A program made the translations under genes and the position numbers. Shown in pieces: positions 15,728 through 54,537 of a stretch of 64,000 nt of DNA. The notes beneath the pieces are model-generated. The model was not told the origin of the DNA and did not search any database. It was given only the letters and a program-made list of their open reading frames with translations. The DNA is from Moniliella sp. 'wahieum' (lineage: Eukaryota), in the NCBI GenBank assembly GCA_003971905.1, contig RSEE01000021.1, positions 496,001 through 560,000 of the forward strand, given 5' to 3'. The stretch's first letter is position 1, and every line of letters begins with the position of its first letter.

Positions 15728-15984
15728 CTCGGCGCTATAGAAGTAATCCTCCGATAGCATTTCCTCGTGTGGCATGCCACGGGTATGTCAGACGACAGCT
15801 TTTGGCAGATTATGTGGACTGTGGTCCAGTGGAGATCCAATACTGCTGAGTATTGCAATCATCGGGCGACGGGGCCTTGCATGTTACTGAAACATGATCC
15901 CGTGTAGTTCTGCTGTTTTGCGTCTCGCTATGATACACTGTCGGTGCGTTGCGATGGACATGTGGACAGCAATCTTCCCGAAAT

Positions 15985-21594: not shown

Positions 21595-22050
21595 CTTCAC
21601 GTTCAACGTACTCAACGTTCACACGTTCACGGTTCACGTTCATGCCCCTCAGGCCGGCCTCATGCACATGGCACAGAAGTATTTGGCACACCAGATATAT
21701 CCCCCACACCTGCATCATGCATGATGCATGAGATGCCTCTTGTGCCACCTGTGGGGCCTCGCAGGGCGTCGCACTAGCTGTTGCGTGGGAGCGAAACTGG
21801 GCCATGTGCTAGAAGCCATTTTTGTATCAGCGCCTATCATATATCAACGATGCCCATGTAGCTGATCACGCATCACTTATCACTACTAAGTCACTTTCAA
21901 CGCTGTTGTTATCCACTCATCTATACGGGCTCTCTCCTCTCTCGGAATAGTAATTCATCTTCTCTTTTTTATAGACTTGAAGCTTGAGCTCACCGCATAC
22001 TCCGTGCAGAAGCGAGGTGATGAACCTCGCGAAGCTTGAAGCAACTTGAA
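21595..22050. repeat. Heptamer palindrome arrays
   Basis: Degenerate ACGT-TCA run 21597-21642; TGCA-TCA-TGCA-TGA-TGCA-TGA 21711-21731; TGA-AGCT-TGA near 21978; AAGCTTGA near 22033. Confidence 0.75.
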
Positions 22051-22435
22051 CTGTTGGGACCCGCGGTCCCGTACTTAGGCTAAAGGCATCACCTTCTCGA
22101 TCATCACCCTTCGCCCCTGATTTGACCTCCGAAGCCTCCACGTGTATACTCACTGCAGGCTTGTTTGAACCCCTGTCTCCTCTAGGTGTGGCATAAGGCT
22201 TAGACCTAACCACCACCACATGCACCACCGCGATTGCATTGCTCTACATTTCCAGAGGTTCATCACCCAACCCCTTGGGTTTCTCCGGTCTTACAGATCT
22301 TACACAAGCTTAAAGCGAATGAAAATATTTATCGCTGTCCTTGGTGGGCGCCCACAGCCACATGGCACAGTAACTCAGGACGAAGAAAAGCCCTATTGGA
22401 CGAGAAGTATACTAACTGGGAGACCACCGGGCCTC

Positions 22436-22520
22436 ACACGCCGGATGAGCGGGTCGGTTTAGGCGTAGTGTTTCCCTGTCCCAGCCTTAAGCTCTGTCAA
22501 TGATACGGATGCAATATAGT
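22436..22520 (+). mobile_element. 3' terminus of the CRE-like element
   Basis: GGTTTAGGCGTAGTGTTTCCCTGTCCCAGCCTTAAGCTCTGTCAATGATACGGATGCAATATAG, nearly identical to 29375-29442. Confidence 0.8.
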
Positions 22521-23029
22521 ACGCTCCTTACACCGGCCGACGTCATGATGAAGATGGTGTTAGAGTTGATGTAGGCGCAGGGCGCACGCGAAGACCTGTG
22601 TGTGTATTTGTGGTACATTTGGACGCTTCACGGACATAAGCGGGGGCGCCGATTGAACTCTGCGAGGTCAATATTCAGTGCTGTAGACATGAGACTAGGA
22701 ATTGGAGACGAAGAGGGTCACGAGATGAAAAGTGTTACATCCTCTTGCCCGGCTTCACAGCTTCATAACACCAACTTCCTTTGTTCCCATTCAAAGCAGC
22801 TGTATAGGTATGACGGTGTCACAAGGATCATCTGCCAGTGAAGAAGCGGAAAATGACGTGCCCGCAACGCCAAAGATCCCCACAAATGTGAGTCAGGCTT
22901 AAGGTGAAGTCCTAGACACTAGCAGTGCCTATACGTGTATGGATCATTTTCGATGTAACCCAGATTCCGGGCACGGTCGGCACACAAGCCAAACGACGTA
23001 TCATATGTGCACTGAGGGACATGACAGAC

Positions 23030-24889: not shown

Positions 24890-27096
24890 TTACACGTCAA
24901 GACCAATTTGTCCGTTCTGGGGAACGTACTGTGGGGGCGCGTGAGGGGAATGGAGGACGTTGTCAGGGATTTGCGACATGGGGAGAGCGTTGCCCTGGGC
25001 CCAGAGAACGCTCATGCCACTTCCCAAGTGAACAGCAATATGGCAATGCCAGGGAACGACGCCGTCTTCCAGCACCCGGTGGCGTGTGATAACCCAGCCG
25101 CCGGCGGGGATGTGCCACGAGTCGCGGAATGGTGGGTTAACCAAGTTGAGCAGGCCGGGCTGCTTGGCCTGAGCTTCTTCCACGGATGCGTAGGGGAACT
25201 CGCCTTCGCCCATACCAAGAACCCACACTTGTTTTGGTGCTTGTGGATGGGATGAGGAGGGTTACCAAGGTTCGAGCTGGCCGCCTGGTGAATCACGTCC
25301 ACCACTGCGCCGACGGGAACGCTAATGATACTGTGGTGGAAGTCCGGTCCATGAGGGCGGTTCTTGGACCAGAGAAGAGGATCGAGCTGGGATGTAAGGC
25401 CGATAGAGGTTGAGTGTTGAGAGCCCACGACACTCCATTGGTAATGTTGAGGTTGAACTTGAACGTGTGGGTTGACTGGGCGGGCGGAGGGTTTTTTGTC
25501 CATGGGTGCATGGTGGAGTAGTTGGACACCGTGACGCCAGCAATGCCAGAACCATTGTAGAGCATCCACTGCTTTCCCTCCGTACCCAGGTCATTGGTCA
25601 CGTGCATGCCATCACTGGGCTTCATACCGTTGCTAAACTTGGTTTCTGGAGAGGAAGATGCTCTTGGCCATGGCCTGCATGTAAGGCTGGACAGAAGGCT
25701 TGATAGCCCCAACTGCAATCTCGGGAGAACCGTCACCCTCATTGTACATAACGGTGTTCCAGCGCGCTTCCCGTAGGCCAATTCGTCATTATCATAGTCA
25801 CCGTCGGTGTCGGGTGTGTTGTCCAGAACATCATCCTTAACCGTCACGTCCACCGTAGCCTCAGACCTTTTCGAAGTCGACTTGTTCTCCACATCCAGAA
25901 CGGCATACCCAGACTTAATCTGAGGCATGTTGTTGCACAGGGAAGCGCGCATTGTGTAGCTCCCTCTCTTGTAGCGGAACCATTACCGTGTAGCGTTGTC
26001 CCAATTGGGTATCAAGAATTTGAACCTTCTGTGGGTGGACGAACGTACCGTCCGTAGCAACAACCCACATGTCGTGACCATCAATGGAGAAACACGTCTC
26101 GTACTCAGTCCCGCCATTGAGGATGTGGAAAGCGGCAAACTTTCCGTCCGCGGAGCCATGCACCGAGGACTTATACTCTCCCAAGGCCGAGGTGGAGTTC
26201 TGGCACGTGGAGGGGTTCACCTTAGCGAAAGCGTTCTTGAATCCAAAACTGGACCGACGCATCCGTTGGAGTCGAGGTCATCAATAAAGGTGCTTGCAAG
26301 CCCGCGATGGACTTCAGGTACTCCACATCGTAACAGTAATTGCGACCCTGTGAGTTGATCAAAAGGGAGTCGATGCAGTAGGGGTCCTGCCCGGTGAAGC
26401 GGTAACGAGTCAAGGCATTGTCCATCGACTCATGACGCCAGTCGTGCAGTATGAGAGGCCCAGCCTTGTGGTACGCTTCCTCCATGGCACGTTGGTCATC
26501 CTTGTTCTGGGAAATGGCTTCCCACGGACGAGGACGGGACGGCTGGGGGTGTAGAATGATGGGCCCACGCAGCCCGTCAGCGTAGGTGGCCGAGGCATGG
26601 GAGTGATAGTAATGAATCCCATAGTTCTTGGCCGTCCACTCGTATGTATAGTTCGAGTAGGGCATGATGTTGTACTGAGTCACGCCGGAACACCTGAAAA
26701 GCCCGGAGGTCAGGACAAAGTGTGGAAATATGATGAAGAGGAAACGTACCATCCTGATGCATGGGAACATCGAGCCCATGCCAGTGCATCGACATTTGAA
26801 TGCCGAGGTTATTGACGATGGTGATACGGAATGTGTCACCCTCATTACTTCAATGGGGGGCCAGGGGTTTTCCGTTGATGGCATATGTCTGGCGCCAATA
26901 CCCGTCGGGCGCGAGCCATTGATTTCCGAGCTCAAGAGTGTACTCGCGCACCTTTGGCTTGAACGAGGCCGGCTCTGCACCCGGAGCGCGGGCAGAAAGA
27001 GAGGTGGTGGAAGTGCGATGGTGACGGAGTGATGACGACCCGCATTGACACCGAGTGCGTATGCGGCGGTTGCGGCGCGGCCACAGTCCAGCGCAT
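24890..27096 (-). CDS. Multicopper oxidase (laccase-like, AA1), probably secreted
   Basis: All four copper motifs present: MHWHG, HYYHSH, HPIHKH, WHCHIAVHLGSGM; intron 26749-26694; several indels. Confidence 0.93.
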
Positions 27097-27984
27097 GGTG
27101 TGAACAAGCAAAGAGAATGTGGGTGGGGGGAGGGTGGAAGGGTCGTTGAAGAGGGGTAGTGGTAGGTGGGTTCCCTTTGGAGTGGAAGGTAGCTATCCAG
27201 CGACTTTATGACCACGGATCAACACCCCGCCCGGAGCCACCGTGATGGCAACAGTGGGTGGGCGACTAAGGGTGGTCAGCCCATTTCTCCCCAGCCAGCG
27301 TCACGCTGCGCGCCGGAAAGCGTAATAAAATGGGATCCGCAGATCTGCGCGGCCAGACACAGGCCCCGTGCTGCACAACTATTTCTTTGTGCTCCAGTCC
27401 CGCCACGCTCCCGCCCCGCCTTCCGAGTGGCGAACATGGAACATTGAGTTTCAGCACTGTAGTCACTCCATCCGCTTCGCCCTGCGCGAGTCCAGTGTCC
27501 CCTGGGCTGGCTGAACGCTGCCAATGTGCCGAGGCTAGTGGTTGGACAGCAGGACCATTGTGACATGCGAACGTGCTATGTGAACGTACATCACCACCCC
27601 ACCCTTGAAGATGTTTAGCACCGCCTACATTTTGTCGACCGGACTTTGACCGTCCGGCGTGTGACTAGGTGACTATTGAAGCTCGGCTAGTTGCTAGTAG
27701 TCTGGCCCTCAGGCCATGTAAATGACTACTGTGATGTATGCCAAACAACTATATGTTTTTCGCTTTTGTCGATCATATCGACCGTCCAGCACAGTGACCG
27801 AATTGACGGCTACTTTTGTGCACCACCGCTTTCCCGCTCTTCTCGACCACCTGCTGCGCAAACTCAGCTCCCTTGTGGCCTATTTGAACCATCGTCTCCT
27901 GGGATTAGCCACTGCAGTCCGGCTTTCATATGGCCAAAACTTCTCTGACCACAGCACAGATCTCGCAATGCATGCCGGCATATT

Positions 27985-28175
27985 TCAAGCTTGAAGCTTG
28001 GAGCTTCAAGCCAACCTTTGAGCCATCACGTCAGCCTTCAAGCTCTTTCTGCGTTGGCCAGCCTTACCAACGTTGTTAACGATAGTCGATTATCGATTAT
28101 CGATGATCGAATGATCGAAATGATCAATGTCTTTTCAATAAGCTTCTTCAGCGCCTCAGCGCCGAAAGCCGGCTG
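27985..28175. repeat. Heptamer palindrome arrays
   Basis: TCA-AGCT-TGA-AGCT-TGG-AGCT-TCA at 27985-28008; TCGA-TTA-TCGA-TTA-TCGA-TGA-TCGA at 28086-28110. Confidence 0.85.
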
Positions 28176-28197: not shown

Positions 28198-28570
28198 TTG
28201 CAACCATATCATTGGCAGAGCTTATAAGGCTGGAACAAATAAACGTTGCGCTTGAACCAATAACTGTTCATCCGGCGTATATTTGCTTGTTAGCGCCATC
28301 CTCGTCTAGGGAACCAGGGGAATCGCCATGAGATCAGGACCCTTTGGTACCCGCCATCCGTTCCCATACACGGGGAAGCGCGCGTGGATACGGATGAAGA
28401 ACGTGGTAGTAGACATCCGAACGGTGAACCATCTGCATCGAGACTGGAGTCCATTCCTTCCAGATACCAGCATCTTTGTCCGCTGCTAACCAGGGGGAAA
28501 ACGGTTTTGGGCGCGTCAATGGTATTTGGCGTTCTAGAGTTAACAGGAGCTGCTCCACAAGCTGGACGCT
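28198..28570 (-). mobile_element. Decayed 3' fragment of the CRE-like element
   Basis: Reverse-complement homologue of about 29060-29442. Confidence 0.8.
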
Positions 28571-28574
28571 GCTG

Positions 28575-29442
28575 ATGGTCGCCATGTGGTTGAGCACAAC
28601 CCGACCCAATTGGCTCTCCGCCATTCCATCCGTCCCCTGCCTCAAGCTCTCTGACCAGCAGGTTCAGGTGGTCTCCAGCTCCACACGCTGTGCGGCTCCA
28701 AGCGCAGCATGTGCAAGTGCGGCGTCAGTCCTCGATGGAGCACATCATGGTGTGCACCCGCTCTCATTCCAAGTTAGTGCGTTGCATGAGCAGTGCGGGA
28801 GCCAGTTCGTGCGCTCCATCCCCCGGCACCCCATCCACACGAACACTATGCCAGTGTGGAGGAAGATGGGGCGGGCGCGGACGGAGCGCACAGCGCACTG
28901 ATTACGGCGTGATAGGGCCTGGAGCAATCGGATCTGTAATGGAGGTGGACCATATGCTGCGCGACACGGGAACGCAGGAGGCGCAGAGCGCGTACCGGAG
29001 GGTGGTGCACGAGAGCGCTGCGTCGCCTTTGGAACGCCGGGAGAAGAAGCTGCTTCGGCTGCTGGAACAAGCAGAATGCTACAAGAAAGCCAAGTACCAG
29101 GGACGCACTCAAGAGCCGTTTTCCCCTCTGGTTTTGACGACGCGAGGATACTACGGTGGTACCAAGACAGCGGGCAATTGGAAGGATTTGGTTACTGAGT
29201 CTCAATGGAAATGATTCCTCGCTCGGATGTCTACCACGTTCATCCGTGTCCACACGCGCTTCCTAGGGTACGGGACCGGATGGCGACCACCGGAGGGTTC
29301 TGATAGCTTGCCGGCGATCCCGCTGGTTCCTTAATCTTGGTGGCGCTTCCAAATAAACCCGCAAGATGAACGGTTCGGTTTAGACGTAGCGTTCCCCCTG
29401 TCCCAGCCTTATGCTCTGTCAACGATATGGATGCAGTATAGT
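28575..29442 (+). mobile_element. 5'-truncated CRE-clade (RLE) non-LTR retrotransposon, the longest copy in the window
   Basis: Across frameshifts: NWLSAIPSVPCLKLSDQQV, a CCHC-like knuckle (CKCG..MEHIMVC), RTDY..EVD and KKAKY..FSPLVLTTRGYYG (restriction-like endonuclease layout), then the shared 3' UTR. Confidence 0.75.
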
Positions 29443-29477
29443 AAAGGATATACTGCATATCATCTGGTCATTTTTCC

Positions 29478-29700
29478 TACACTGCAATCATATCGTTGAC
29501 AGAACTGTGAAGGTTGGGACAAAGAAACACTGCGCCTAAACCGACTTCTATATGCTATAACCATATCATTGACAGAGCTTAACGCCTCGTTCCATCCTCC
29601 TCCTTCACAGTCGACTCGTTGTGGATGTGGGCTGGAGCGCACCAGCTGAAAGAAATGGGCACCCGAACCGTCCCGTTCAATATGAGGTAGGAGCCAAAAC
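29478..29700 (-). mobile_element. Two short inverted fragments of the same element
   Basis: 29478-29545 is a 3' terminus; 29555-29580 is a second terminus joined to an internal piece homologous to about 28800-28870. Confidence 0.7.
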
Positions 29701-30114: not shown

Positions 30115-32687
30115 CTAATGTCTGGGTGGACCTGACTTCCTTTTTGCCGCACCCCCTAGTACTCTTATACGTGCTTCCTTGTCAGGGTGCGCCCTTTTTG
30201 ACTTAATGTGGGCGCTAAACCCTATGCAATCATAGACATACACTGGGCGGGCGAATGAAATGAAGAGAGTAGGTGAGTCTTGTGAAGGATGTGAGAAACA
30301 TGCGTATGCCAGAAACGCGCCATTGGCCGATGGCAAAGAATGAAAGCAACGAGCACCAACGCTCCTGGACATGAGATCCATCCCAAATCTGGGCTTGTAC
30401 AAATGAGGCGGCATATGTGTGGGGATGTTAGGAATGAGGAAGTGTTTCCTGCCCGCGGTGTGGGCAGAATGAGCCTGGCGCCCCCGAGCCGAAGAAGCAT
30501 GCTTGTTAACCAGAGGCGTGCTACTCATTGATGCTGACGAGACGGACTCGTGCGACCCATGATCCCCCTCCGATCTCGAGCCTGAATGCGCCGAGGAATC
30601 CGTCCCGGAAGTTTCGCGCACGTGTTCGCCAGAAGGAGCGCTCCGTCCCTGTGTAGACACGTCCAGCATTCCTGCCGCCACCATCGCCGCCACACTTTCC
30701 CCGATGGCTTCGGGAGCCTTGCCCTTATTATAATTCGCCGGCCTCGTTGCTTCTGTAGAGGCGCGAATGAGGTAGTAGCTGCGATGGGGGCTGTTGCTTG
30801 AGCGTTCGAGGTTGCCTGAGCGTTCGAGGTTGTCTGGGCGTTCGAGGTGTCTGGGCGTTCGAGGTTGCCTGGGTAGAGTCTGGCTTGGCATCCATATCGA
30901 CCGCGTCCACCTCCTCGTCCAGTCGGCAAAGCTGCGGCACAAGGGACAGAGCAAGCCTGGGTGAAGGCGCATCAGCAGAGGGGGATGCACTTGTAGTGAA
31001 AGGAATGGCGGCAGGGAGCAATAAACAAGCTCTGAGAAACCGTCATGCAAAGAGGCAGATACAGCATTCAGCTATCGGCACGGCTGGGGTACATCTTTCG
31101 CTGGCACGGCTGCGGTGCCATCTTTGGCCGGCACATGCAGCGTGGCACTGTCGCTTTTGTGCAACTGCTGGCACGGTAGGTAGCGCCGAGCTTGGGCCGC
31201 ATACTCCGTCTGCACATCAACGTCATGTAGCTCGACCTTCTGAACCGCCTGGTAGGCGTTGCGTCCTCTGGAATAGTTAACACCCGAGCTTCACAACGTC
31301 TCCCTCGTGCAGCTCGGTTGGCCACTGGCCACCAAAGGCTTGGAGAGACGTGTATTGTTGACAAACGTGCCAGCACTGCTACCCAGGTCACGGATCCACC
31401 ACTTGACAGCAGGGGTTTCTGACGTTTGTGCAGGCGCCTGAACAGACGAATCCAGAGCTTCTTCCCCGAAGACGCATGCTCATCGTTCGCCCCTAGGGCC
31501 AGAGGTGAGATGGGACGATTCATATCTAGGGGGCCCACGTCTTCGGAAAGAGGTTTCCCAGCCTTGGGGGGGGAGGGTCAGAGGTGCACCAAATCTCAAC
31601 GTGTTTTCGCGAAACGACCTTGGCCGACAACGCAGCACGATGTTGTTCCAGGCGTGGTGGGTTGCCATTGGTATTGGGGATTGCGCCACCACGCATTCGA
31701 TGAGGAGATAGAGGAGTAGGGCCGGTAGAATGATTGCCGCCATCACTCCCATCGGCATTGCCTAAGGCGCGTGCTTCGACGTGTGAGGGAGACATGGGTG
31801 CTCGCCTGCCCAGTTGGGTGCACCCCTCCCGTGTCAGCGGAGAGTTCCGGATTAAAGGGCGAGCGATCAGTAAAGCGACCAAGGAACAGTGCCTCTCCAT
31901 CTTGCTCGATCTGGCGCTCGATGGGATCAAACCAGACCTGCATTCCTCGTGCTCCGTCCAACATTGGAACAAGGCGAAACGTATGAAGTGGATTTTGACC
32001 ACGATCCGAGCCCGGTGGAGCAGGGGGAGGAACCTTTTCATGCCAGGACAAATCCCAAGAGGGGGAAGTCACCTCGGGGGCAATTTCAGGGGAAAGCTGG
32101 GGAGCAGCATTAGCAGACACGTGGTGGCCATCACTGCCGAGTAACCGAGCAGCGGCAGCGGTAAAATGACCAACCAAGCCAAATGAGCTGCGGTGGGTGG
32201 GGCTGTCAAGGGCGAGGACGGAGCCGCCAGCAGATGCCGCGCTGGTATAACCGTCCATTATGTTGGTGCCGCTTTGTTGTTGTTCGAGGAAAGGGGTTGG
32301 CTCCGGTGCCGCTTCCGGTGCAGGCTCCGGTGCCGCCGCTGGCTGTGACGATGCGACAGTGCTATTCATGGGACCGGATGCGCGACGGAAGGGGTTTTTA
32401 GAGGGCGTATACTTCGCCATACGGGGTCCGAGTCGTGGCGATGCCCTCAGCAGTAGATTGGTGGTGGAGACGCTCACAGGGCGGGGAGGCTGGGATGAAG
32501 TGTCGCTGCCACCCATGGCGTGTGGGGCCGCGGCATTGGCAGCAGTCGCACGCAGATCGGATGCGGGTGGGACAGGGACTGAGCCGCGACGGCGAAACCA
32601 CGTGCGTGGAGCAGAGAGGCGCGAAGACGACGGACCGGGCGAAACGCTGCGGTCGATGCCTGGAAATGAAGACGGTGGCGGTGCCAT
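30115..32687 (-). CDS. DMA1: FHA + RING-H2 E3 ubiquitin ligase (Dma1/Chf family); 3' end uncertain
   Basis: LFLGRFTDR and SAKVVSRKHVEIW (FHA); ECCICLF..LFIAPCRHSFHYKCI..CPLCRSFAD (RING-H2) read across indels; 18-bp coding repeat (QATSNA)x4 at 30800-30870. Confidence 0.88.
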
Positions 32688-32869
32688 AATTATGGCGACG
32701 ATGCTAATGGTGGTGGTGGTGGGGGCAAGCTAGGGGGGTTGGGAAGGAAACAGAGGGAAAAGCGACTCGCGGCCCAGCACAAGGGAGCTGAGGTAGGTTT
32801 TATGCCGCCATCGCGCTCACAGGCTGAGCAGCCTGGCGGCCCCACGCTGGCATTGGACCAGTCTGGTCA

Positions 32870-34035
32870 TCGAGCTCATGCGTCATGCATCACGCGTCAA
32901 GCTTCAGCTCGTCCCTCAAGCCCCAGGCTGAGGCGGGCTAAGCGCTAACGCTCAGGATGGCCAGGGCCTGCGGCTCTGGGGCCCATCGGGAGATGATCGA
33001 TGATCCGTGGTGCATGATCCGTGGTGCATGATGCATGATGCATGACATGAGTGACTAGAACTCTAGTAACGAGTAGACTGCAAAGGTAAGTGTTCCACTG
33101 CCCCTGCTCGCTCTGCCTGAGCTCTCGGAGACGTGCGTCTGCAGTCTCTGGAACAAGTACGTTTAGTACAAGGACTAATGCAAGGCACAGGAGGGTACAG
33201 GACATTCGCCCGCCCGCCCGCACCGTTTTCTCCGCACTGATGCAGTGCCTGCCTCCGACAGTTCCCCCACAGTCTCCCCCGCAGCCTCGCCGCAGGCAGC
33301 AGGCTTCTCTCTCATGCTGACGTCACATGATCACATACATTCAGGGTACCTTTGCTCGGCGCTCCTTCCAAAATTCACAAGCTCTCAGATCTCAATCTCA
33401 GATCTCAGATCTAAAGCTTCCAGCACTGAGGCTGAGGCGCTGAGGATGCCACGTCCTGTGGGCACACTCTAGGTGGGATAATGTGGCGGCACATTGATAT
33501 TGAGATTGGGGTTCTCAAGCTTCACTTGAAGCTTGAAGTCCAACAAGCTCTGATGCCTGCTGATGCAGCCATGCACTTCCTTCCAAACACGACGACGACA
33601 GAAGGCGAGAGCATGGTGGAATGTAACGTGCGTTGGTGCTACCGCTCTCTTGTCCCGCACATTGGTATTCTGCCCCAGTAGCACCACAACCTCCACATCG
33701 TAGCTGAGACTCAGCTTTGAGATCTGGAGAGCACTGCTTCCTATGTTCAACGTTCACATGTTCACAACAGGCCCCGGTCGCATGTCGCATGTCACATGTT
33801 ACATGTTTACAGCCTCTATGCCTCTGTTCCACAACTATTTCTCAGGTGCCCGATGCCCGGTGCTGCAGGTTAGTTTTGTAACGCATGATTTCGATCATGC
33901 GTATCATCGATACTAAATCTTAAGCCACAAACTCGCTCGAAAAGCGAGGTACGGGAAGCAGCTCCACGTAGCCTCCCTATTAATTAACCCGTTAGCCCTA
34001 AGTTAAGCACTTAGCCTATTAAAAGCGCTAAGCCC
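32870..34035. repeat. Dense heptamer palindrome arrays upstream of DMA1
   Basis: Mixed-core run 32876-32906; TGCA-TGA run about 33024-33045; TCA-GATC-TCA-GATC-TAA-AGCT 33398-33418; TGA-AGCT-TGA about 33526; CATG run 33781-33806. Confidence 0.85.
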
Positions 34036-34149
34036 ACACCTGTTCGTATTATCATCGGATGGTGACAAAAAAGCACGATTTTGTAACGAGATAGACTAAA
34101 AAACCGGAGGGTACCCTGACGCGTGACGTGGCTCTAAATCATCCCTACG

Positions 34150-34726
34150 GCTGTGGCTACTGTGCCAGTGGCACGGAAGCTTATATTTGGCCGGGGCCCT
34201 GCACCTCTCTTCAGTGTGTAGGGCACAGAGAGAGCCACACGGCCATGCAGGGGGTATACTATGCTTCCAAGGGATGTGGCGCATTTTTAGAAGCAACAGA
34301 AGTGAACGCCGCAACACTCAAGAGCCTTTCTTCCCCTTGTGGTCATGACGACGTGCGGATACTATGCTACCGCAAGACCCCCACCAACAGATGTTTTGCT
34401 GGGCACCGCAAGGAGAATAAAAATGTACTAAATCGAGAAAAGTCCCTCATTATGATTGAAGAAGGTTCACCGGTCACCGGTCACCGGTCACCGCGCTCAC
34501 ATGTGTATACCAACACGTTATTCATTCGCATCATTCGTATTCACGGACGCTACGTCCATTTTGTGGAAGCGAATGGCGGGCACCCAAGGGTCCGACTTAT
34601 ACTAGCGGGGCTCCCTTGGTTTCTTGAATGATTTTGGCGCCAAAACAAGCATGCAACGCACGCCGCATCAGCAGGGTTTTTCGAGCGCAACGTTTTTTGT
34701 CCCACAACTCTGGCCTTAGGCCTTAA
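34150..34726 (+). mobile_element. Highly decayed CRE-like fragment containing heptamer expansions
   Basis: CACTCAAGAGCC..TTCCCC..TGACGACG..GGATACTA (34315-34365) matches 29106-29152; 34500-34705 matches 29226-29405. Confidence 0.7.
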
Positions 34727-34893
34727 GTCCTGAAAAAGGACAAGTCTTCCCTGCTACAGCTTCAACGTGTGTCAGCTTTCTTCATCGGGTGGTATATATC
34801 TCCACATGGAAGGGAAGGACGGTAGGGGCCTATGTGTTTGATAGGGGTGTTGCGTAAAATAACATCACACAGGAAATACAGGCAATACGGTAA

Positions 34894-35309
34894 AAGCTTC
34901 AAGCTTCAAGCTTCAAGTGTGAGACTCTGTCTCAGGGGTAGTGCATGCGGGGGATGGGAAAAAGGGCCTAGCAACTGAGACTGCTGTGCGGCCGACCGCT
35001 ACAAACACACTTTTTTATTACAGTGCTAATTGAGATGACATGTGACATTCATTGATTTGATCGCGGTTCCATAGGTATGATTATGTTGACGTATGTTACG
35101 CAAGGATGATGAGATCTGGGACCACGCAAGGCAACCCTGTTTCCCGCCATATATAATGCACCAGTACCCCCCCAGCAAATCATTGTGGAAGACTGGGGGA
35201 ACCGGGAGAACCCACGGAGTTGAAATTTGAGCGGGTAACCGTATAAACCGGATAACCGATATTGCAATGGCGATGATCGATGATGCATGATGCATGATGC
35301 ATGATGCAT
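34894..35309. repeat. Heptamer palindrome arrays
   Basis: (AAGCTTC)3 at 34894-34914; TGA-TCGA-(TGA-TGCA)4 at 35274-35308. Confidence 0.9.
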
Positions 35310-38300
35310 TTGATGTTGCAGTAGTACTGAGTGAGTGCAGTGTTGAGACGTTGAGGTCTAATAAGCTTAAGAAGGCTACACACCTGAAGCCTGATGGAAG
35401 AGACCGGGGTTTGAACAATTAAAAAAACCGCAGTGTGTAACAGACTTCTCTCGGAAGGCAACAAACCTTATAGAAGAGAGAGTTATGACTACTAAGTGGT
35501 CCATGAAGCATGAAGCATTGGGCCCGTCCCAAAACATACGTTGCGCTCTCTGCTATTTGGGGGCACGATTTGGATGTTGAACATCTTGAAATGTATATTT
35601 GAGCAATGCAATATCGATGGTATATATGGTTAAGGTCTAAACCTTCTGTAACGGGAGTTACAGGCTTCCCAGGCGGAGACCTTCCCTGATGCCTATATAC
35701 CGGAGACAAGACTTGCGGAGAACTGAACGCTGTTTATATCCAAAGTCGAAAGAACACTGGCATAAACGTAGGAGGGTCACGAGTAGTGCTTGCTGTTCGT
35801 CCGAAGAACCTAGCCCCTGCAAAAGAGGTTGCATGTTAGGGGCTGTGCGAGAAAACGAGAAGCTCCGATGATGGGCGAGGGAGGGGAAGCGAACTAATCT
35901 AAAAGATGATTCTTCTAGAGTGGAGAGTGACTACAGAATAAGGGTGAAGGGGAAACAATGGCGGGCAGCTTAATAGGCCATGACAACTGGATCTAATAAC
36001 AAGCAGGTTTTATATAGAAGAGACGGGGAAAAGGAAAGACCAATAGGCCTATACAGCGAAAAGGGGAAACGATTCAGGAGGAAGGAGTGTTGATCAATCA
36101 CGAGAGGCACGAGGTGAGAGACGGGGCGAGGTTCAAGATGCAAAGCGGACCTGAGACGAGAAACGAGAGGCGATAAACCGAGTCGAAACCATGTGTAGTA
36201 GTGTTTTGGAGTTTAGACGAGCCCGAGCGCAGAAGAGATGATTGTTGTGGGTTTTGTAGTTAGGCCGAGAATCCGAGTCACGATAGCGAGCACAATGGCG
36301 AAAGATTGAGGACTCGAGAAGTGATCATAGGGAGAGAAGCCGAGAAGCAAGAGCGATCGTCGTCCCGTGACACCTTTTCCTAGCTCCATAATACCCGGAA
36401 GAGACAGGGTTTCGAACAAGCCAGAGTAAACACGTGGAGGCTTCGTCGTAAGAGCAAAGGACATGGTGCGAAGCGGAAGAGCAGGGAAAGTGTCTCGGGA
36501 TGAAAGATTGGTAATGGGAGCGAGATGCGCGAGGTCCGTGAGATACTCTATTATAGTATGACAGAGGACAACGAGCATATACCGTTATAATATACTGGGT
36601 CTGTTGAACTCCTCAAGTCCACCCGATACCTAGAAATAGAGTTCAAAAACTCATTGCAAGCATTGAAAGAGAGGTGACGACAGCTTCGGTATGATGCATG
36701 ATACTCAAAAGACTCAGAGATCGAGGGACGCGATGTGTATACGTGTGTGGTTGATCCATTCAGAGGCTATGCCAGTTAACTGGATTTAGTACACTTTTCG
36801 CTGCCATTTGTGTTTGCGATTAATTGAACGTAGTATGCCTCTTGAGAGTACCGACAACCAGGTTCAGACTTTCCCTAAAGTCCCCTTGTCATTGTGTGCG
36901 TGTCACGGTCGTTAGTTCCCAAAGCGCAAGTGCACATCTTGAGGGATGACCTCATGTAAGCAATGAGAATCCTCGCCTGCACCCGTTTTCAAGATATAAG
37001 CCTCACACAGGTACTCCAAGTACTTTTGTAAATACAGATGTATTCCATATTTAGTGTGCTCCCATATATCCCTAACGAACATAACTTGTTGCGACAATAA
37101 AGAAGGGGAAGTAAACATGGCGGGACCTATATACCCTAATGGCACCAACATACGACCGCCGGTGATGGAGGCAGGGACATTTGATTAATGTCACAGAGGA
37201 TGTGAAGATAGACTATTCCATACATACGTGTAGAGGAGAACAGAGACAGGATGAGAGGCGGGTGATGCCTTACGGAAGGTAAATATATACGCCCAGGAGA
37301 GACACGACTCAAAGGCGAGAGAACAAAGACCTCAGTCGAGACGAAAGGCAGCAGAATGGAGGAATTGTTCTTGAGACACAACAGAAAAGAGGGCATGGAT
37401 CAAAGCACGAAAACAGGGGAAGGACGAGAGACGCTCAACAGAAGGAAATTGTTGACGATGGGAGTGAAGTCTACCAAGGTACTATGATATGTGACAGCTG
37501 TCGGACGTGTAGATGATGGCTTCCCTAGACAGTCGCTTTTTGTGTTACGATGCCCGGACGGGGATACGCCACTGTACTACCCCCCCCCCCCCCCCCCTCC
37601 ACCCTCTCTGCGCGCCTTTTTGTGCTCCTGTGTTGCGGTCACATCTCCTGTCGTCCTCTCTGGACGAACGACAAACCGATTTCATACTCGATACTTCACT
37701 CGCTCTCATCCGTGTTTTCGTGATCCATCCCCTTAGCTCTCCTTGAGTCAGTAAGGGCTATCTGTGATTGTACGGCCATTTGATCACGGAGAATCTGGTC
37801 ATGGCTCAACGCAGCGCCCATATTCATCCAGAACGGTGAGAAAAGATGGCACTAAATTGCTTGTTATAAGTAGACGATCACATGAGAAATTTCCTAACGT
37901 TTTCCGGAAAACTATATTGAATACGTCTTTCCCCCCTTCCCTGGTGTGGCCGTCTTGAAACGGATAAAATCTTCGTCATCAAGAGCCTGCTATAAGAATA
38001 TAGAAGTTTGACACCTGGAAATAACTATGGCTCAAAAAAGTCTCTCTCTCTCTTTGACTGCTTTATGGTTAACCGGTACACTAGTATAATGCTCGTCCGT
38101 ATATTCACATCATTCGTGCGACATCCCACATAGGAACGAAGAAAAATGGAAGGAGAGCCGGAAAAGTTATATACTGAGTGCCCTACAGTTGTATGGCGAC
38201 GCCATTTGCATTCTCATTGGGCGAGGGCGAGCTGAGGGAACCCCGGACGAACGCGGACTTGGTGCAAGAAGCGTTTTCTATGGTATTTGTTCCGGCTTCA

Positions 38301-38547
38301 AAGGAAATTCAGATGTTCGGCGTTCTTTTCGTGGCTTTCTTCCCTCTTACAACGCTTTCATTTTATTTTGCTCTTTGACTTCCCCTTTTTCATCGGCTGT
38401 GCTAACGCTTATGACTTTTTGAGGTTCAGAAAAGCGCACCACGTCGCCTTCACGCTTTGTCTGAAGCAACTGATCCCGTAGACACACCCCGGCGGGCTCT
38501 TGAGTCGCCCCCTCTGTCATCTATCATCTGTGCTCTTCGGAATGTAG

Positions 38548-39230
38548 CTATATTGCATCCATATCATTGACAGAGCTGTGAAGGCTGGGACGGGGAAACG
38601 CTACGCCTAAACCGCGACCCGTTCATCTTGCGTGTGCTGCTTGGTAGCGCCAACCCCGCTTTAAGGAACGGAATCGCCAGGAGGTCAGGATGCCCGCCAT
38701 CCGTTCCCATACCCTAGGAAGCGCGTGTGAACATGGATGAACGTGGTAGACATTCGAGCGAGGAACCATTTCCATTGACAGTCAGTAGTCAAATCCTTCC
38801 AGTGCCCGAGCATCTTGCCCGCTGTCTTGGTACCGTAGTATCCTCATCGCGTCGTCCAAATCAGAGGGGGAAACGGCTCTTGAGTGCGTCCCTGGTGTAT
38901 TTGGCATTTTGTCGCATTCTGATTGCTCCCCAGCAGCTGAAGCAGGTCCTTCTCCCGGCGTTCCAACTATAACGGCGGCGTCGCGGTGCTCTCATCATCA
39001 TGCACCATCTTCCGGTACGCGCTGTGCGCCTACTCTTCCTGCGATCCCGTGTGGTGCGCAGCGTGTGGTCCACCTCCGTTCCTGATCCTCCGATTGTTCC
39101 AGGCCCCATTACGCGGTAGTCGGTGCGCAGTGCCCTCCCCCCGAGCCTCGACCCATCCTCTTCCTCCACAGGAGGTTCGTTGTGGACGTGGGTGTCGGGG
39201 ATGGCTATCATATATCACAGCATCACCGTG
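38548..39230 (-). mobile_element. 5'-truncated CRE-like element copy
   Basis: 3' terminus CTATATTGCATCCATATCATTGACAGAGC at 38548; translation RTDYRVMGPG..EVDHT..NAKY; homologous to 28810-29442. Confidence 0.8.
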
Positions 39231-39775
39231 TTCAACTGAACGTTCACCTTGAACGCACCTTGAAGCTCTTGAAGCTTGAGCGCGCTTGAACGTTCAACTG
39301 TGTAAACACTGCTGTCCGCATGCGGCATTGTCACATGTGATGTCACGTGGGCAACATGTGATGCATGAGTGCGGCACATCAACCCTAACGCCTAAGGCTA
39401 TCCCCTGTCTGGCGTTGGCCGGAATGCATCATGCATCATGCATCATTCATCACACGCCACTCGTCACGCGTCATGCATCATGTAACACGTCACTCCAGTC
39501 ACATGTCACAAGTGACTGATAGTGACTAACGACTGCGGCGACGATAATCTAATCGATAACCCGATTCATCGATAACATGGAGATAACAATACAGACCACT
39601 GCGCGTTACAAATATGCTACCCGCACGCTCAAGAACCTTATTGTTGCCGCGGCTCCTCTTGCTGGACGCCGTATTGAGGCGCCAGTTGAGCCCGTTGGAT
39701 GATGAGAAGGCCTTAGGCCTGCGACAAGGTCCGGAGGCCTGAGGGGGCCTAAGGCCTAAGGCCTAAGGCCTGAAA
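39230..39775. repeat. Dense heptamer palindrome arrays
   Basis: ACGT/AGCT block 39230-39300; TGCA/CGCG register 39425-39484; TCGA block 39550-39575; (GGCC-TAA)3GGCC-TGA 39746-39773. Confidence 0.88.
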
Positions 39776-40783
39776 AGGTAAATGAGGTGGGGGAACGAGC
39801 AATTCATGCCGTTCGTTCCTGACGGTGGAGCCCTGAGGGACAGGTGATAGTATCGTGGGTACTAGGGGATAGAAAAAGGTTTGATTAACGATGAGGTGGC
39901 GGAGGCTTGACAGGGGCAGAAGGGGTTTGTTGGTGATGGTGGAACGGGGGCGCGGGGGGAGGGGACAGAAGAGTGGAAGGCGGAGTTGTGGGATCTGCTG
40001 GTGCAGTGTTTTGACTCCAGCCGTTAGCCGCGAGATACAAGGCTCGATAAGGCCCAAGAGCTAAAGCGCTTCAGACGTGTGGACGTGATAATACAGAGAG
40101 AGGGCGAGCCGGTGAGTGAGCCCGGGGAGATAAAAGATATCTGGTTCGTGGACCCTGGCCATCGGCCAAACGGGAACAGGGCGGGGTAACTGCCATAGTG
40201 GCGCTGTGCTGATGCAGGAAACTGGACACTGGGTACTGCGGCCAGGCGCAGTTACCTTCGCATACTCTTCGAACGCAAAACCCGTGCTTCGGCACACTGC
40301 TGTTGTCCGCAGTCCTGTCCCCTGGCCTCACCTCAGCCTCAGGGCTGCTCCAAGCCCCAGACCACAAGCGCGTCACGCCCAGGCACAGGCCAGGCAGTTC
40401 AACGCTCTTGCAGCACCATGCATCATGCATCATGGTTCACGAGCGATGATCGTTGAGAGTATGTTGAACCCGGGTCTGTTTGAGCAGACCGCGCACACCA
40501 GGGAACACTGCCCCCGCTGTTGCGAGGGCCCCTCCAGTGCTACTGCGCCATTCACCATTCCGTATAGTATTTGTGCAAGCTTAAGCGCACTTACACTGAC
40601 CCCCGGCGTACGTCATGTTATTTTTGTGCAAAACCACCAGTGTTCGGCCCAGAGGCATTCTTACAGTAAGCGCAAGCCCGGGCACTCTTGGATACCCATA
40701 TCTCTCCAACTATAATAGGGCGGCCCACTCGGAGCAACATTCCGGTTGCATCCACCCACCTACCTTCCTGGCGCTTTTCTGCC

Positions 40784-45553: not shown

Positions 45554-48500
45554 ATGCCGCCAGCTCGTACCCGCAATGGGCGGACCAGTGGCGCCCAGTC
45601 GGACTCCGAGGTGCTCCACGCCTTGCCTCGCACCGTCGCCTCCGTCTTTGCCCAGGTCCAGCATTCTGTCGCTGTCCACCGCAAACACCAAGTCGCCCTC
45701 AGCGCCATCCACCAGCGCTGCGCCGAAATTCTTGGCAAACGCGCCGATGGCTCCCCACGTTTGGTGGGCGAGAAGGCGTTCATTGAGGCCTTTCTCGCTA
45801 GCATCAATCGCGTACTGGGCATCAAGCGCGGAGAGGCGGTGGCAGAGAGATGCATCCGCTTTGCTGCGTCCTACACTGTTTATGCACAGGAGGCCTTTCG
45901 CCCCTCTGCCGAAGTTGGAGACGACTACGACGAGACACCCGCCGAGCGTTTTTCAGAGAAGCTTCTCAAACACCTGCTCCGTGGATTCGGCGCCAAGGAT
46001 AAGAACGTACGCTTCCGCTGCGTTGAGCTCGTTGCTCTTCTCGTTATGGGTTTGGGCACGATCGACGACGACATGTTTGTTCTGCTCAAATCGCTTTTGA
46101 AGGAGCGAATCTTCGACAAGGAAGCACCTGTCCGTGTCACGCCGTCATTGCCCTCTCTACGCTTCAGGGTCCCCCCGATGACTCGGAAGCTGACGAGGAG
46201 GCTGATGAGATCCGCTCTACTCTTCTTTGGCTCCTTCGTCATGATCCCAGCGCGTACGTTGATCATTGAAAGGCACCTACTGTTTACTGACATCCTTTTC
46301 TTCTAGCGATGTACGTCGCACTGTCCTTTTCAACCTGGCCAAGACTCAGGAGAACCTCCCCTTCATCTTGGAGCGTATGCGTGATGTCGACACCCTCACT
46401 CGCCGCAGCATCTTTACGCCTCAACTCTCCGGCCTCCCTCCGGAAGCATGGGAGGGCGTGTCGTCCCACCCCCCTCCCAAAGGTCACCTCGTCTTTCAGG
46501 GGAGCCTAACCAACAAGGTCATAATGGATGGGCTCAAAGATCGGGAGCCATCCGTTCAGCTCGCCACGAAGCGCCTCTTGACCACTTGGCTCTCCGAGAG
46601 TAGTAATGACCTGGTCAAGTTTCTGGATCACTTTGACTTGCTCGCCGTCGAGACAAATGAAGAGGAAGCGGAAGAGGACGAAATGATGCAGCCCGATCCC
46701 ACCAAGAGCGGGATAGTGATTGCCGAGCAAGCGTTACTTGCAATGTTTGAGGCACAGCCAAGCCTGACTGAGCATGTTGCCCTTGTTGGCCAGGAGGCGG
46801 ATCAGAGTGACACGGTTTGGGCACAACTCACCCCAGCCAAAGCTCTGATGGCCAAGACAGCCCTGGATTTCTGGCGCACCCACAACCTGCTTTCCCAGTT
46901 CGAGAATGGCATGCCTGCCATGACGGCCCTTGCGTTCCGCATTCAAAAACACTTCAACGATATGTTGGATGCGGCGGAACAAGTCGTGCTGGCTGGAGAG
47001 GGGGGGGCGTCCGAGGCGACCCTAAGCCAGAAGCGCAAGGTTCAAGCGGCGCAGGAGATGATTGTGCACGTCCTCATGCAGATCCTGCTTAACGCCGACT
47101 ATGGAGACGAGATTGGCCGCCGCAAGGTCTTTGGTCTGGTGCGCGAGATGATGAGCGGGGAAAACGCTCTAACCCTTTCCGAGACGCTCTTGGCTGATTG
47201 TCTGGACCTTATGGCCAAGTTGGCGGATAGCCAAACCGATTTGCTTCGTCTTGTGGTCGAGATTACACAGCAACTCGAGGAAGAGGAGGACGAAGAGGAG
47301 GAGGCGGAGGTGGATAATGACTTGAGTCTTGCCCCTGCACAAGATCCAACACTTGACCAATCCGCCTCCCAAATTCAGCGGCCCAAGTCCCGTGCACCCA
47401 AAGCGGCTGATCCTTTGGCACTGCGTACTCGCACTATTTGCCGCCTGGTGGTGCGGCTCATGCTGGAGCGTGTTGATGGGGGACAGTCGATGAACAATGC
47501 ACTGAGTGGGCCACTGCAAGGCCTATTAAGTGGACTCATCGCCCCAGCTGTACGTTCGAAGGAACCCCTTCTTCGGTGGCATGGCCTACGTGCTCTAGGC
47601 CTGTGCTGTCTTCTCAATCGCACCATGGCCCTGGAGACGTTCCCTCTCTTTTTGGACCAAGTCAAGCGCGATGCTGGCGATGCGATCCGCGAGTGTGCCG
47701 TTTCGGTGGTGTTTGACGTGATTCTGGTGCATGGGCTTAGTTACTTGGCGAGCAAGTCTGTTGATGCCGCATCAGATCCCAACACAGCAACAGCGACACT
47801 AAAGGAAGCTTACCGGCAGATGTTTGACTTCCTCAAGGTACTTCTTGAGGACGACTCGTTGCGTGTGCAAGCCGCGGCCGCGCTAGGAATTGGCAAGCTC
47901 ATGCTGGCAGGGGTGTTGGACGTGGACCCGGCACTGGTGCAAGAGGCACTCAAGGCTATGGTACTCGTGTACATGTCTCCTGATACAGCGGACAACATTG
48001 ACATGCGCCAATGCCTGAGCTACTTTTTGCCGGCCTACTGCTACTCGTCGCGGTCGAATCAGCGGGCTCTCCATACGGCCTGGGTGGAGATTCTGAGCAA
48101 CCTGACCGAGGTCTATCGTGAAGACGAGCCAGATCCTGATGCCCCACCGATGTTGACTCCGCAGCAAATTGCACTGCAGCTGATCGATTGGATGGATGCT
48201 TCCAAGGCTGCCTATCCAGGCATCAAAGACGAGGCTCTCAACCTTGATATCTTGAGTGACATTCTGCGTGAAGTGCTGGTGGATAACCCGGTGAACGCAA
48301 GCTTTACCTATCCCTCCTCTCCAAGGTTCATCTTCCGAATCAACCTGATGAGGAGAGTGTGTATGCTGCCCTCACCTGGGCTGACTTGGTCGGTTCGTCC
48401 ACTGCTTGGCAGCTGGCTCTGCACCATGATCGCCCCCGTTCTGCCTCGATTTTCGAAGCAACCGCACAGAGAACTCGTTCGCTCGGATCCACACCACACT

Positions 48501-48835
48501 GCGTAAAAAGTACGAGGACCTGGTTGAGACGCTCGACTATCGCCGAGTATTTATCGGGAACGAGGAAGAGGAGGAGGTTCCCCCGGCCTATTCTGCTCTC
48601 CGGGACTTGCTTGTCCAGACAGGTGCGGACGCTGAAGACGTCATTGCGGCCTTGGAGAAGGAGAAGGAGGTTTCAGCCCCAGCGGGTACCACACGGGCGA
48701 AGAAGACTGCATCCAGTGCGTTAGCACCACGGGTGCCTTCTAGTCGAAGTGCTGCCAGTGGGAGAACCGTATCAGCCAGCTCGACGGCGAGGACAGTCTC
48801 AAGTGCCTCGTCTTCGGCGGCGAACAGAAGTGGAG

Positions 48836-54500: not shown

Positions 54501-54537
54501 CACGTTCCGAAAAAAAGGGTTGTCGCCTCCTTGCATG

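Follow-up and report, generated by a model that had tools for sequence, protein, structure and literature searches.

A heptanucleotide repeat family joining a T-N-A triplet to freely varying 4-bp palindromes in the non-coding DNA of a 64-kb window

How do different palindromes come to stand side by side in one unbroken 7-bp register? The question is raised by a short array at positions 32876-32906 of a 64,000-nucleotide stretch of contig RSEE01000021.1 (Moniliella sp. 'wahieum', assembly GCA_003971905.1, contig positions 496,001 to 560,000, forward strand), hereafter called the window, in which TCA triplets alternate with four-base cores of different sequence. An earlier note on this DNA had listed this array with five similar ones and had concluded that something restores or selects for the symmetry of the cores. 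Analysis of the whole window shows that the finding is real, statistically solid and broader than first described. The arrays belong to a lineage-restricted repeat family of non-coding DNA, whose 7-bp unit combines T-N-A with a 4-bp palindrome that can have almost any sequence. The spacer is always T-N-A, and the unit can be written as an A-NNNN-T hexamer palindrome plus one base. The repeat is microsatellite-like, with an enzyme-like grammar.

The T-N-A and palindrome grammar

Within the frame TNA-NNNN-TNA the core is palindromic in 102 of 254 cases (40%), compared with 2.7-8.8% for the 15 other flank types of the form aNb. The ten commonest TNA-framed cores are all palindromes, namely TGCA (25), AGCT (16), TCGA (11), CCGG, CATG and CGCG (7 each), GGCC and ACGT (6 each), and GCGC and GATC (4 each). 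At least 12 different cores are in use among the 102 units, six of which have AT-only cores. Palindromic cores fill 34 of 59 frames with TGA spacers, 31 of 51 with TCA, 8 of 17 with TAA and 6 of 8 with TTA. The free base of the spacer is C or G in most units (C in 31, G in 34), and 79 of the 102 have identical free bases on either side of the core.

Hexamer palindromes in general are not in excess in the window (974 versus 1000 expected). A-NNNN-T palindromes lying exactly 7 bp apart make up 34 identical and 12 different pairs; at spacings of 8-22 bp, leaving out 14 and 21, identical pairs number 0-3 and different pairs average 2.3, with a range of 0-6. Twelve different pairs against about 2.3 correspond to a Poisson p of 5.6e-6. 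The palindrome classes C..G, G..C and T..A yield 0-1 pairs at 7 bp. Only the 4-bp core length shows the effect: 2-bp cores are palindromic in 22 of 108 frames, 6-bp cores in 2 of 183, and 10-bp cores give nothing. Palindromic 8-bp cores fill 4 of 126 frames, with about 0.5 expected, and all four are doubled 4-bp cores (TCGATCGA, GGCCGGCC twice, and CTAGCTAG). Such doubling would be the expected product of a filled-in 4-nt staggered cut at the core.

Tandem repeat finding (TRF) returns many head-to-tail arrays of period 7, with up to 7.3 copies. Exact period-7 runs of at least 14 bp number 47; 31 of them hold an A-NNNN-T+N unit, where about 2.7-3% would be expected, and several of the other 16 are one substitution off the rule. 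The pattern TSA-N4-TSA-N4-TSA (S, C or G) occurs 34 times, versus 2.62 +/- 1.56 times in 100 dinucleotide shuffles. Identity at lag 7 is 0.57-0.70 at all seven positions, with no extra conservation of the T-N-A spacer over the core. Among free-base mismatches the exchange of C and G is commonest (19 of about 61), and it is also frequent at the two central core positions. N-centred palindromic heptamers show no independent enrichment, and self-complementary NN-TNA-NN heptamers without an adjoining palindromic core stand at chance level (166 of 2490, 6.7%).

Two further period-7 arrays, at 35502-35518 and 21625-21638, join half-sites of two families around T-N-A (CAT-G-AAG and GTT-C-ACG). Such hybrid arrays are rare, about 3 against 31 symmetric units.

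Coding DNA is nearly free of the repeats. One of the 102 units lies in a Pfam-supported open reading frame (ORF), though such ORFs cover 22% of the window; stop-free frames of 200 codons or more, which make up 40%, hold three. Three hot stretches, 5.55 kb together, hold 67 of the 102 units; the remaining ones are scattered over divergent, tandem and convergent gene gaps, for example at 12099 between the divergent RPP0 and RPL6 genes and at 13577 between the convergent RPL6 and RPL35A. The hot stretches, the doubled cores and a number of arrays are the following.

32850-35550: hot stretch 1, with 27 of the 102 units
39200-40450: hot stretch 2, with 17 of the 102 units
54500-56100: hot stretch 3, upstream of the glycogen synthase gene, with 23 of the 102 units
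12107-12120, 54550-54557, 55240-55247 and 55366-55373: doubled 8-bp cores between T-N-A spacers, from the core-length count
9892-9923: (ATGCATG)4.7
10001-10038: degenerate register of six units, the last being ACCGGT-G and ATCGAT-G
12099-12120: TCA-TCGA units, one core doubled to TCGATCGA, between RPP0 and RPL6, which are divergent
21711-21731: TGCATCA followed by (TGCATGA)2, the free base changing from C to G within the array
27987-28110: (AAGCTTG)3.6 with a flip of the free base, and an (ATCGAT-T)/(ATCGAT-G) array, upstream of the multicopper oxidase gene
34467-34493: (TCACCGG)3.9, that is ACCGGT+C
34894-34917: (AAGCTTC)3.4
39746-39771: (GGCCTAA)3.7, that is AGGCCT+A
54532-54649: (ATGCAT-G)3 and the doubled core TCGATCGA, then (ATGCAT-C)4 in inverse orientation, with a 14-bp sub-period
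54679-54704: (TAGTTAC)3.7, that is ACTAGT+T
55095-55117: (TCGATGA)3.3
55229-55257: (GTAACTA) units, that is ACTAGT+A, with the doubled core CTAGCTAG
55403-55451: longest uniform array, (CTTGAAG)7, that is AAGCTT+G, with a 40-bp exact run; the free base turns to C in the last unit

Segments 32989-33050 and 54598-54659, which lie 21.5 kb apart in inverse orientation, are 86% identical over 64 bp and share the variant units GTGCATG and CCGTG; either a piece of array was dispersed or the two segments decayed in parallel. Four copies of the perfect 10-bp palindrome TGAACGTTCA, a unit in which the free bases on the two sides are complementary to each other, are found (0.04 expected), at 39237, 39287, 54941 and 56055, in or beside the hot stretches.

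The placement of the units bears on the idea of selected protein-binding arrays, in which a dimer would read T.A half-sites 7 bp apart together with a symmetric core, and the arrays, lying between genes, would have a regulatory role, act as insulators or load topoisomerase. The T and A positions of TNA-NNNN-TNA have two-fold symmetry, the specificity of sequence and spacing is protein-like, the arrays lie outside coding DNA, and a weaker form of the grammar may be present in a distant basidiomycete contig (see below). However, at least 12 cores are used, while no single protein reads any palindrome whatever, and the arrays occupy divergent, tandem and convergent gaps alike. The free base has no strand preference (31 C, 34 G), the spacer is no better kept than the core, and two thirds of the units are concentrated in three hot stretches instead of being spread over all genes. 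We regard selection for protein binding as improbable.

Mixed arrays and the symmetry of their cores

All six arrays that raised the question are present letter for letter: the first, at 32876-32906, reads TCA-TGCG-TCA-TGCA-TCA-CGCG-TCA-AGCT-TCA, and the others lie at 17059-17079, 33398-33418, 33747-33760, 35274-35308 and 55869-55882. The description of the first as a row of palindromic cores holds for TGCA, CGCG and AGCT; the initial core, TGCG, is not a palindrome and is one step away from TGCA and from CGCG alike. The mixed arrays are listed below, with the z-score of the predicted fold against composition-matched shuffles for two of them.

17059-17079: (CTAG-TGA)2 followed by CCGG-TGA; fold z -0.32
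32876-32906: TCA spacers with the cores TGCG, TGCA, CGCG and AGCT in one 7-bp register; fold z -0.48
33383-33418: (AGATCT-C) units followed by TAA-AGCT
33743-33807: TCA-ACGT-TCA-CATG, then GCATGT/ACATGT units with C or T as the free base
35273-35309: TGA-TCGA followed by (TGA-TGCA)4; TCGA to TGCA is not a CpG transition
39424-39518: eroding mixed array of about 13 units in one TCA register, with the cores TGCA, TTCA, CACG, CTCG, CGCG, TGCA, TGTA, CATG and CAAG
55869-55882: TAA-GCGC-TAA-GGCC

Differing neighbours in register should be palindromic in 1/16 of cases if core symmetry is of no account, and there is a clear excess. The frame TNA-core-TNA-core-TNA occurs 47 times in the whole window. 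In 21 of these frames one core is repeated, and it is a palindrome every time; where the cores differ (26 frames), both are palindromic in 5, one in 13 and none in 8. Five frames with both palindromic, against 0.10 expected, correspond to a binomial p of 5.6e-8. Given a palindromic core and a differing neighbour, that neighbour is palindromic in 10 of 23 observations, versus the 1/16 expected. A looser count, which takes any TNA between two different palindromic tetramers, gives 34 against approximately 23-32 expected from the marginal frequencies. Because this looser count is near expectation, the excess is bound to the full in-register frame and rests on 5-12 cases. The five differing cases with two palindromes found with any T-N-A are the same five found when all spacers are identical; mixed arrays thus keep one free base.

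The 12 different A-NNNN-T hexamer pairs at 7 bp include 4 that differ at all four core positions and 8 that are, by our count, one symmetric step apart; this distribution of one and two steps (8 versus 4 of 12, with 40% expected) is not significant. The claim that some core switches fit C>T changes at CpG while others do not is borne out. Two independent CpG transitions fit only the ACGCGT/ATGCAT pairs, which are 3 of the 12, and the other 9 need transversions or four changes, so that the neighbour differences are mostly not the C>T or G>A changes at CpG that a founder unit altered by deamination would have produced. TGTG and CACA are asymmetric products of CpG deamination that are as likely as TGCA; among the TNA-framed cores each occurs less than twice, whereas TGCA occurs 25 and CATG 7 times. 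The observed/expected ratio of CpG in the window is 0.86, a slight depletion. Five symmetric differing pairs beside 13 one-palindrome pairs, the latter being the pool that contains single-substitution variants, are by our estimate far too many for independent point mutation. On account of the 3 fitting pairs, the scarcity of TGTG and CACA, the CpG ratio and the excess of symmetric pairs, CpG deamination is not the whole story.

The same counts dispose of chance combined with CpG decay of ordinary microsatellites. This explanation has in its favour the conversion of ACGCGT to ATGCAT, the intermediates between them (ATGCGT at 32878 and 55966, CACG and CGCA cores), and the approximately 10 of the 102 units that chance would supply (our estimate from the 152 non-palindromic frames). 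It is contradicted by every frame, spacing, period-7 and shuffle control, leaves 9 of the 12 different-hexamer pairs unexplained, and is at odds with the rarity of TGTG and CACA and with the CpG ratio. It is refuted by those counts, and the probability we leave to it is negligible.

The earlier note had thought of a restoration of symmetry. If this took place within the core, a substitution in one half would be copied to the other half, by quasi-palindrome strand switching or by methylation-linked half-site repair. In agreement with it, symmetric differing pairs are too many, beside the one-palindrome pairs, for independent mutation, 8 of the 12 different-hexamer pairs are one symmetric step apart, and exchanges of C and G are frequent at the two central core positions. 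But a palindrome of 4-6 bp is probably too short for fold-back templating by itself, and strand switching should flip the adjacent free base, while mixed arrays keep the same base. In addition, no core position is shared in 4 of the 12 pairs, and a CpG ratio of 0.86 gives no sign of a strong methylation-linked process. We therefore hold restoration in place to be improbable, much as we do selection for protein binding. That differing neighbours are palindromic far above 1/16 stands; paired substitution or symmetry restoration within a core is not established by it, and switching of cores by paired changes has against it both the four pairs that differ throughout and the mixed arrays that fold like shuffles. 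Cores that were created already palindromic and were then juxtaposed at a shared T-N-A fit the data at least as well as paired substitution.

Smallest elements, array ends and a possible mechanism

The 102 units form 76 chains: 59 of one unit, 11 of two and 6 of more. Among exact lag-7 runs, those with a unit number 10, 3, 17, 6, 5 and 5 at lengths of 10, 11, 12, 13, 14 and 15 bp, with a peak at 12 bp, whereas runs without a unit fall off smoothly (598, 205, 70, 32, 12 and 3). Twenty-three of the 87 runs of 12 bp have a palindromic junction, and 16 of these read TNA-N1N2 / N2'N1' / TNA-N1N2 in either orientation. This commonest element is thus a 5-bp direct repeat whose two copies are linked by their own last two bases in inverted form; among the 87 runs, other pentamers have palindromic junctions at chance level. 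A count of TNANN pentamers repeated at lag 7, both strands included, gives 118, and the inverted 2-nt junction is present in 95 of them (7.4 expected). A 1-nt inverted junction is found at lag 6 in 12 of 21 cases (5.2 expected), lags 8 and 9 give 2 and 1, and all other pentamers give 61 against 53.6 expected.

Array ends are also non-random. The periodicity stops 0, 2 or 4 bases past the outermost T-N-A at 65, 34 and 15 of 152 ends, and 1, 3, 5 or 6 bases past it at 18, 10, 4 and 6 ends; control frames decay smoothly. The favoured stops are the spacer/core boundary, the core centre and the end of the full core. In the adjoining tetramer the near half matches far more often than the far half (pattern 11xx in 69 cases, 0011, 0111 and 1011 together in 6), and the array ends are therefore true ends rather than internal substitutions. 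Bare 10-mers without further periodicity number 14, with about 10 expected, and have the same free base in 7 of the 14. A left/right asymmetry of chain ends, (2,0) in 13 and (0,2) in 5, is not significant. The 31 longer runs show no fixed phase, their starts and ends falling at all seven positions.

Strict sequence (T.A), strict spacing (3+4) and symmetry combined with a free core argue for enzyme-defined copying rather than for thermodynamics or selection. Our leading, still tentative, reading is that the family is the product of a sequence- and spacing-specific mutational process, later lengthened by slippage, and not of selection on each copy. We infer from the patterns above a break, a hairpin-type copying, an enzyme and a rejoining step, which could be arranged as follows. 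Recurrent break and repair at T-N-A would be made by a staggered-cutting nuclease or a cut-and-paste transposase acting through hairpin or fold-back intermediates. T-N-A-N1-N2 would be duplicated and the junction filled with the inverted N2'N1', a net gain of 7 bp, and the palindrome would be perfect from birth, with its sequence drawn from the local flank. Ordinary slippage could then extend the arrays by 7 and 14 bp, and point mutation, CpG transitions included, would erode them. Rejoining or deletion at a shared T-N-A would set different cores next to each other in register.

More specifically, the grammar may be the signature of an undescribed site-specific reaction of break-repair or transposase type in Basidiomycota, which would add 7 bp each time and write the palindrome from the flank; we consider this possible, though doubtful. 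Direct repeats joined by short inverted P nucleotides are the trace left by transposases that form hairpins (hAT, Transib/RAG, MULE), PIF/Harbinger and IS5-type elements target the triplet T-N-A, and an inverted dinucleotide within a duplication is the formal signature of a hairpin opened two bases off its tip. Both features of excision footprints are present here, a short direct repeat flanking a filler (T-N-A on both sides in 102 units) and an inverted-symmetric filler (102 of 254 frames, 95 of 118 junctions). The 12-bp modal class fits a 5+2+5 scar, but longer arrays end in all phases. Basidiomycota carry DNA-transposon lineages with 7-bp target duplications, hAT7 and Kyakuja, and a CMCT clade with 2-5-bp target duplications, according to the accessible part of PMC12730594.

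A number of observations weigh against such a reaction. A search of the window for terminal inverted repeat elements with T-N-A duplications gave 30 candidates, all of which are chance pairs or the arrays themselves. A transposase domain is found neither in 87 ORFs of four repeat-rich stretches searched with Pfam (15.9-16.7, 19.5-22.9, 28.1-29.7 and 33.9-38.6 kb, the third holding a copy of a dispersed repeat and the fourth a low-GC stretch) nor in the 140 long ORFs, out of 172, that were searched. Pentamers duplicated without a junction (lag 5) are not in excess, though hairpins opened at the tip should yield them. The T-N-A-N-N pentamer lacks the dyad symmetry that is usual in transposase targets, and one of the two symmetric junction types is seen while the other is not. 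In chains of at least two units the predicted (0,2)/(2,0) end phases occur in 1 of 17, and the 31 longer runs start and end in any phase. Chain ends are near-independent, so that the 12-mer may be no more than a combination of the two commonest end types. Finally, the copying reaction by itself makes no new core beside an old one, and the rejoining step is an added assumption.

Two sub-threshold Pfam matches among the 87 ORFs were disregarded. The dispersed repeat is a family of 73-88% identity at 15984-16224, 22435-22522, 28198-29580 and 38548-39204, which includes two 0.65-kb copies in inverse orientation, about 9.4 kb apart. An end motif of about 30 nt (TTGCA[AT]CCATATCATTGACAGAGCT) is present in both orientations, and there is no Pfam match; the repeat looks like a non-autonomous element with inverted ends. 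The birth of an array was sought in two diverged copies of this repeat, and the indels between them are not 7-bp units.

The grammar of direct repeat, 4-bp palindrome and direct repeat is also that of Tc1/mariner-type excision scars. Here a 3-bp T-N-A duplication plus 2 nt from each inverted end would give 3+4 = 7 bp per visit, and different transposon families would leave different cores. Apart from the matching grammar, the same free base on both sides in 79 of the 102 units agrees with this origin, different cores in one register follow from repeated visits, and GGCC stands mostly with TAA/TTA (4 of 6), as in PIF/Harbinger ends and targets. It would, however, need at least 12 terminal dinucleotides with one common 3-bp target. 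Bare 10-mers are close to chance (14 versus about 10) with the same free base in only 7 of the 14, array ends do not fall at the duplication, no such element or transposase is present in the window, and PIF/Harbinger excision is usually precise. We judge scars of this type very improbable.

A simpler alternative dispenses with any specific reaction. N2'N1'-T-N-A-N1N2 is a minimal self-complementary heptamer with a 2-bp stem and a 3-nt loop, and hairpin-stabilised slippage alone might produce the arrays: looped-out strands or Okazaki flaps would fold, evade repair and expand, and only self-complementary variants would grow, mimicking selection for symmetry. Repeat expansion is known to be driven by flaps that fold into hairpins, and d(GCGAAGC) is a heptamer that forms a mini-hairpin of unusual stability. 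This explanation accounts neatly for the period and the symmetry. The predicted fold of a uniform array places T-N-A in a three-base loop at the tip, with a single N.N mismatch per 7 nt. Against composition-matched shuffles the z-scores of uniform arrays range from -1.6 to -5.6, the strongest being that of 55398-55453 (-5.6, T-G-A triloop), with -2.4, -2.1 and -1.6 for three others; 54587-54646, at -0.15, folds no better than shuffles. Arrays of 5-7 units, 14-bp sub-periods, the ends of longer runs in all phases, the rarity of AT-only cores (6 of 102) and the prevalence of free-base exchanges between C and G (19 of about 61 mismatches), as a strand flip would give, are likewise in its favour.

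Yet longer stems and G.C closure would be expected of such hairpins, and 6-bp cores are palindromic in 2 of 183 frames while the C..G, G..C and T..A classes give 0-1 pairs. NN-TNA-NN heptamers away from a palindromic core stand at chance (166 of 2490), and the modal element of 12 bp is shorter than one slippage product, 14 bp. Mixed arrays fold like shuffles (z -0.48 for 32876-32906, -0.32 for 17059-17079), and their perfect cores are therefore not explained by hairpins. Finally, spread to other palindromic units is absent from 112 of 118 other (ATGCATG)n loci (see below). Neither hairpin stability nor CpG decay accounts for the mixed arrays, and we consider hairpin-stabilised slippage alone unlikely, though a serious competitor to the specific mutational process that we tentatively prefer.

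Simple repeats are usually seen as structureless by-products of slippage, whereas the T-N-A class follows a rule no looser than that of an enzyme recognition site, with triplet and spacing fixed and dyad symmetry obligatory, though free in sequence. If a specific reaction of breakage, hairpin formation or rejoining underlies the rule, the arrays would be a readable genome-wide record of that reaction and a way to its enzyme. They would also offer a concrete case of new non-coding DNA and palindromic sites arising between genes, with many potential protein-binding or restriction-type sites. One enzyme would then have built a whole class of non-coding DNA in these fungi, a major repeat class that surveys of 1-6-bp units overlook. 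If hairpin physics is responsible instead, the arrays would be a natural experiment on the smallest DNA hairpin able to drive repeat expansion.

Host DNA, occurrence elsewhere and known systems

The arrays lie in the non-coding DNA of a window of nuclear-type eukaryotic DNA with intron-split genes, whose ORFs are short and split. A tRNA scan and an Rfam scan of the whole window returned no tRNA gene and no Rfam family. A Pfam search of 140 stop-free frames, out of 172 with 110 codons or more, matched pieces of the ribosomal proteins L7, P0, L6, L35A and L28, an amino-acid permease, an MFS transporter and the following genes.

5375-7405, minus strand: oxidosqualene cyclase, at least 3 exons (Pfam)
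24893-27205, minus strand: multicopper oxidase (Pfam)
46263-48503, plus strand: condensin subunit Cnd3 (Pfam)
56427-58118, plus strand: glycogen synthase (Pfam)

The five cytosolic ribosomal protein genes (L7, P0, L6, L35A and L28) lie within 22 kb, at 2043-23713, P0 and L6 being divergent neighbours. The best named protein match of the Cnd3 exon is from Tilletiaria anomala (47% identity), followed by other Ustilaginomycotina (36-39%) and by Agaricomycetes and rusts (approximately 30-35%). Judging by these protein matches, the window is basidiomycete DNA, by its look nuclear, and its host belongs probably in or near Ustilaginomycotina; the Cnd3 matches include no close relative of the host in the protein collection.

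A 4.5-kb stretch at 34000-38500 has a lower G+C content (0.48 versus 0.55 overall) and contains 37 ORFs of at least 55 codons, none with a Pfam match, and a run of 18 C at 37580-37597. Two other tandem repeats fall outside the T-N-A grammar: an 18-bp unit in 4.4 copies at 30793-30873, which lies in a long minus-strand ORF and is probably a coding repeat (translation ...NLERSGNLERS...), and the 9-bp unit GCGAAGGCT in 6 copies at 15675-15727.

Outside the window, a metagenome scan for three copies of the commonest unit, (ATGCATG)n, gave 118 loci with 393,912 bases. With TGCA left aside, their TNA frames have a palindromic core in 105 of 1592 cases (6.6%, the chance level), versus 77 of 229 (34%) in the window. 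The (ATGCATG)n arrays elsewhere are thus ordinary isolated microsatellites, overall without the grammar. Six loci whose contig names have a common start reach 15 of 66 frames (23%), against 90 of 1526 (5.9%) in the other 112; this group was made after three of its loci had ranked high, and the three added by name alone give 4 of 18. Locus L064, one of the six, encodes a DUF6593 protein whose sole named matches are from Thelephora, which marks an agaricomycete contig; at 1667-1691 and 4996-5029 it contains (AACGTTG)2 and TGCA units followed by GGCC in register. Locus L051 contains TAATCGATAA, TCAGCGCTCA, TCATCGATCA, TAAGTACTTA twice and (TCATGCA)3 within 900 bp (4150-5030). A weaker form of the grammar may thus exist in distant basidiomycetes. 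A limited search of the open-access literature gave no description of T-N-A plus palindrome heptamer repeats in fungi. Microsatellite surveys commonly end at 6-bp units, and this limit may be a reason why the grammar has passed unnoticed.

The window arrays resemble bacterial heptamers in period, excision scars in grammar and quasi-palindromes in symmetry, and do not show the full set of defining features of any of these families. The 7-nt unit is common to prokaryotic heptanucleotide repeats (cyanobacterial STRR, long 7-nt simple sequence repeats, GGGAATC of Xanthomonas and Nostoc, PMC4692102), which are likewise intergenic, often mirror-oriented, hairpin-capable and without an accepted mechanism. 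Their units are non-palindromic, follow no T-N-A rule and belong to bacterial hosts, unlike the fungal arrays of the window, and the likeness is one of period only. The palindromic microsatellites (A)n-TATA-(T)n of Fusarium mitochondria, as presented in the accessible text of PMC7218506, have a single centre with mononucleotide runs about it, and neither a 7-bp unit nor the T-N-A rule.

Transposon excision footprints (P nucleotides of hAT, Transib and MULE elements, remnants of Tc1/mariner) resemble the window units in having a short direct repeat around an inverted-symmetric filler and a fixed gain of bases per event. They differ in that the window has arrays of up to 7 units, an asymmetric pentamer target, and no element, transposase, empty site or filled site. 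For basidiomycete elements, target duplications of 7 bp, 3 bp and 2-5 bp are reported (PMC12730594); the supplement gives consensus sequences and Harbinger and Plavaka flanks without the 7-bp duplications of hAT7 and Kyakuja.

In quasi-palindrome (template-switch) mutagenesis, imperfect inverted repeats are perfected by templated paired changes, an outcome of the kind that the earlier note had inferred for these cores. The known cases have longer arms and a loop, whereas the window cores are 4-6 bp long and loopless, and the free base beside changed cores is unflipped. Hairpin-driven expansion, together with mini-hairpins of the d(GCGAAGC) type, shares with the window arrays a self-complementary unit, a predicted 3-nt loop, stems formed by the cores and growth by whole units. 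Set against this general background, the rule of the window arrays is stricter than stability dictates, with T..A as the only spacer frame and 4 bp as the only core length.

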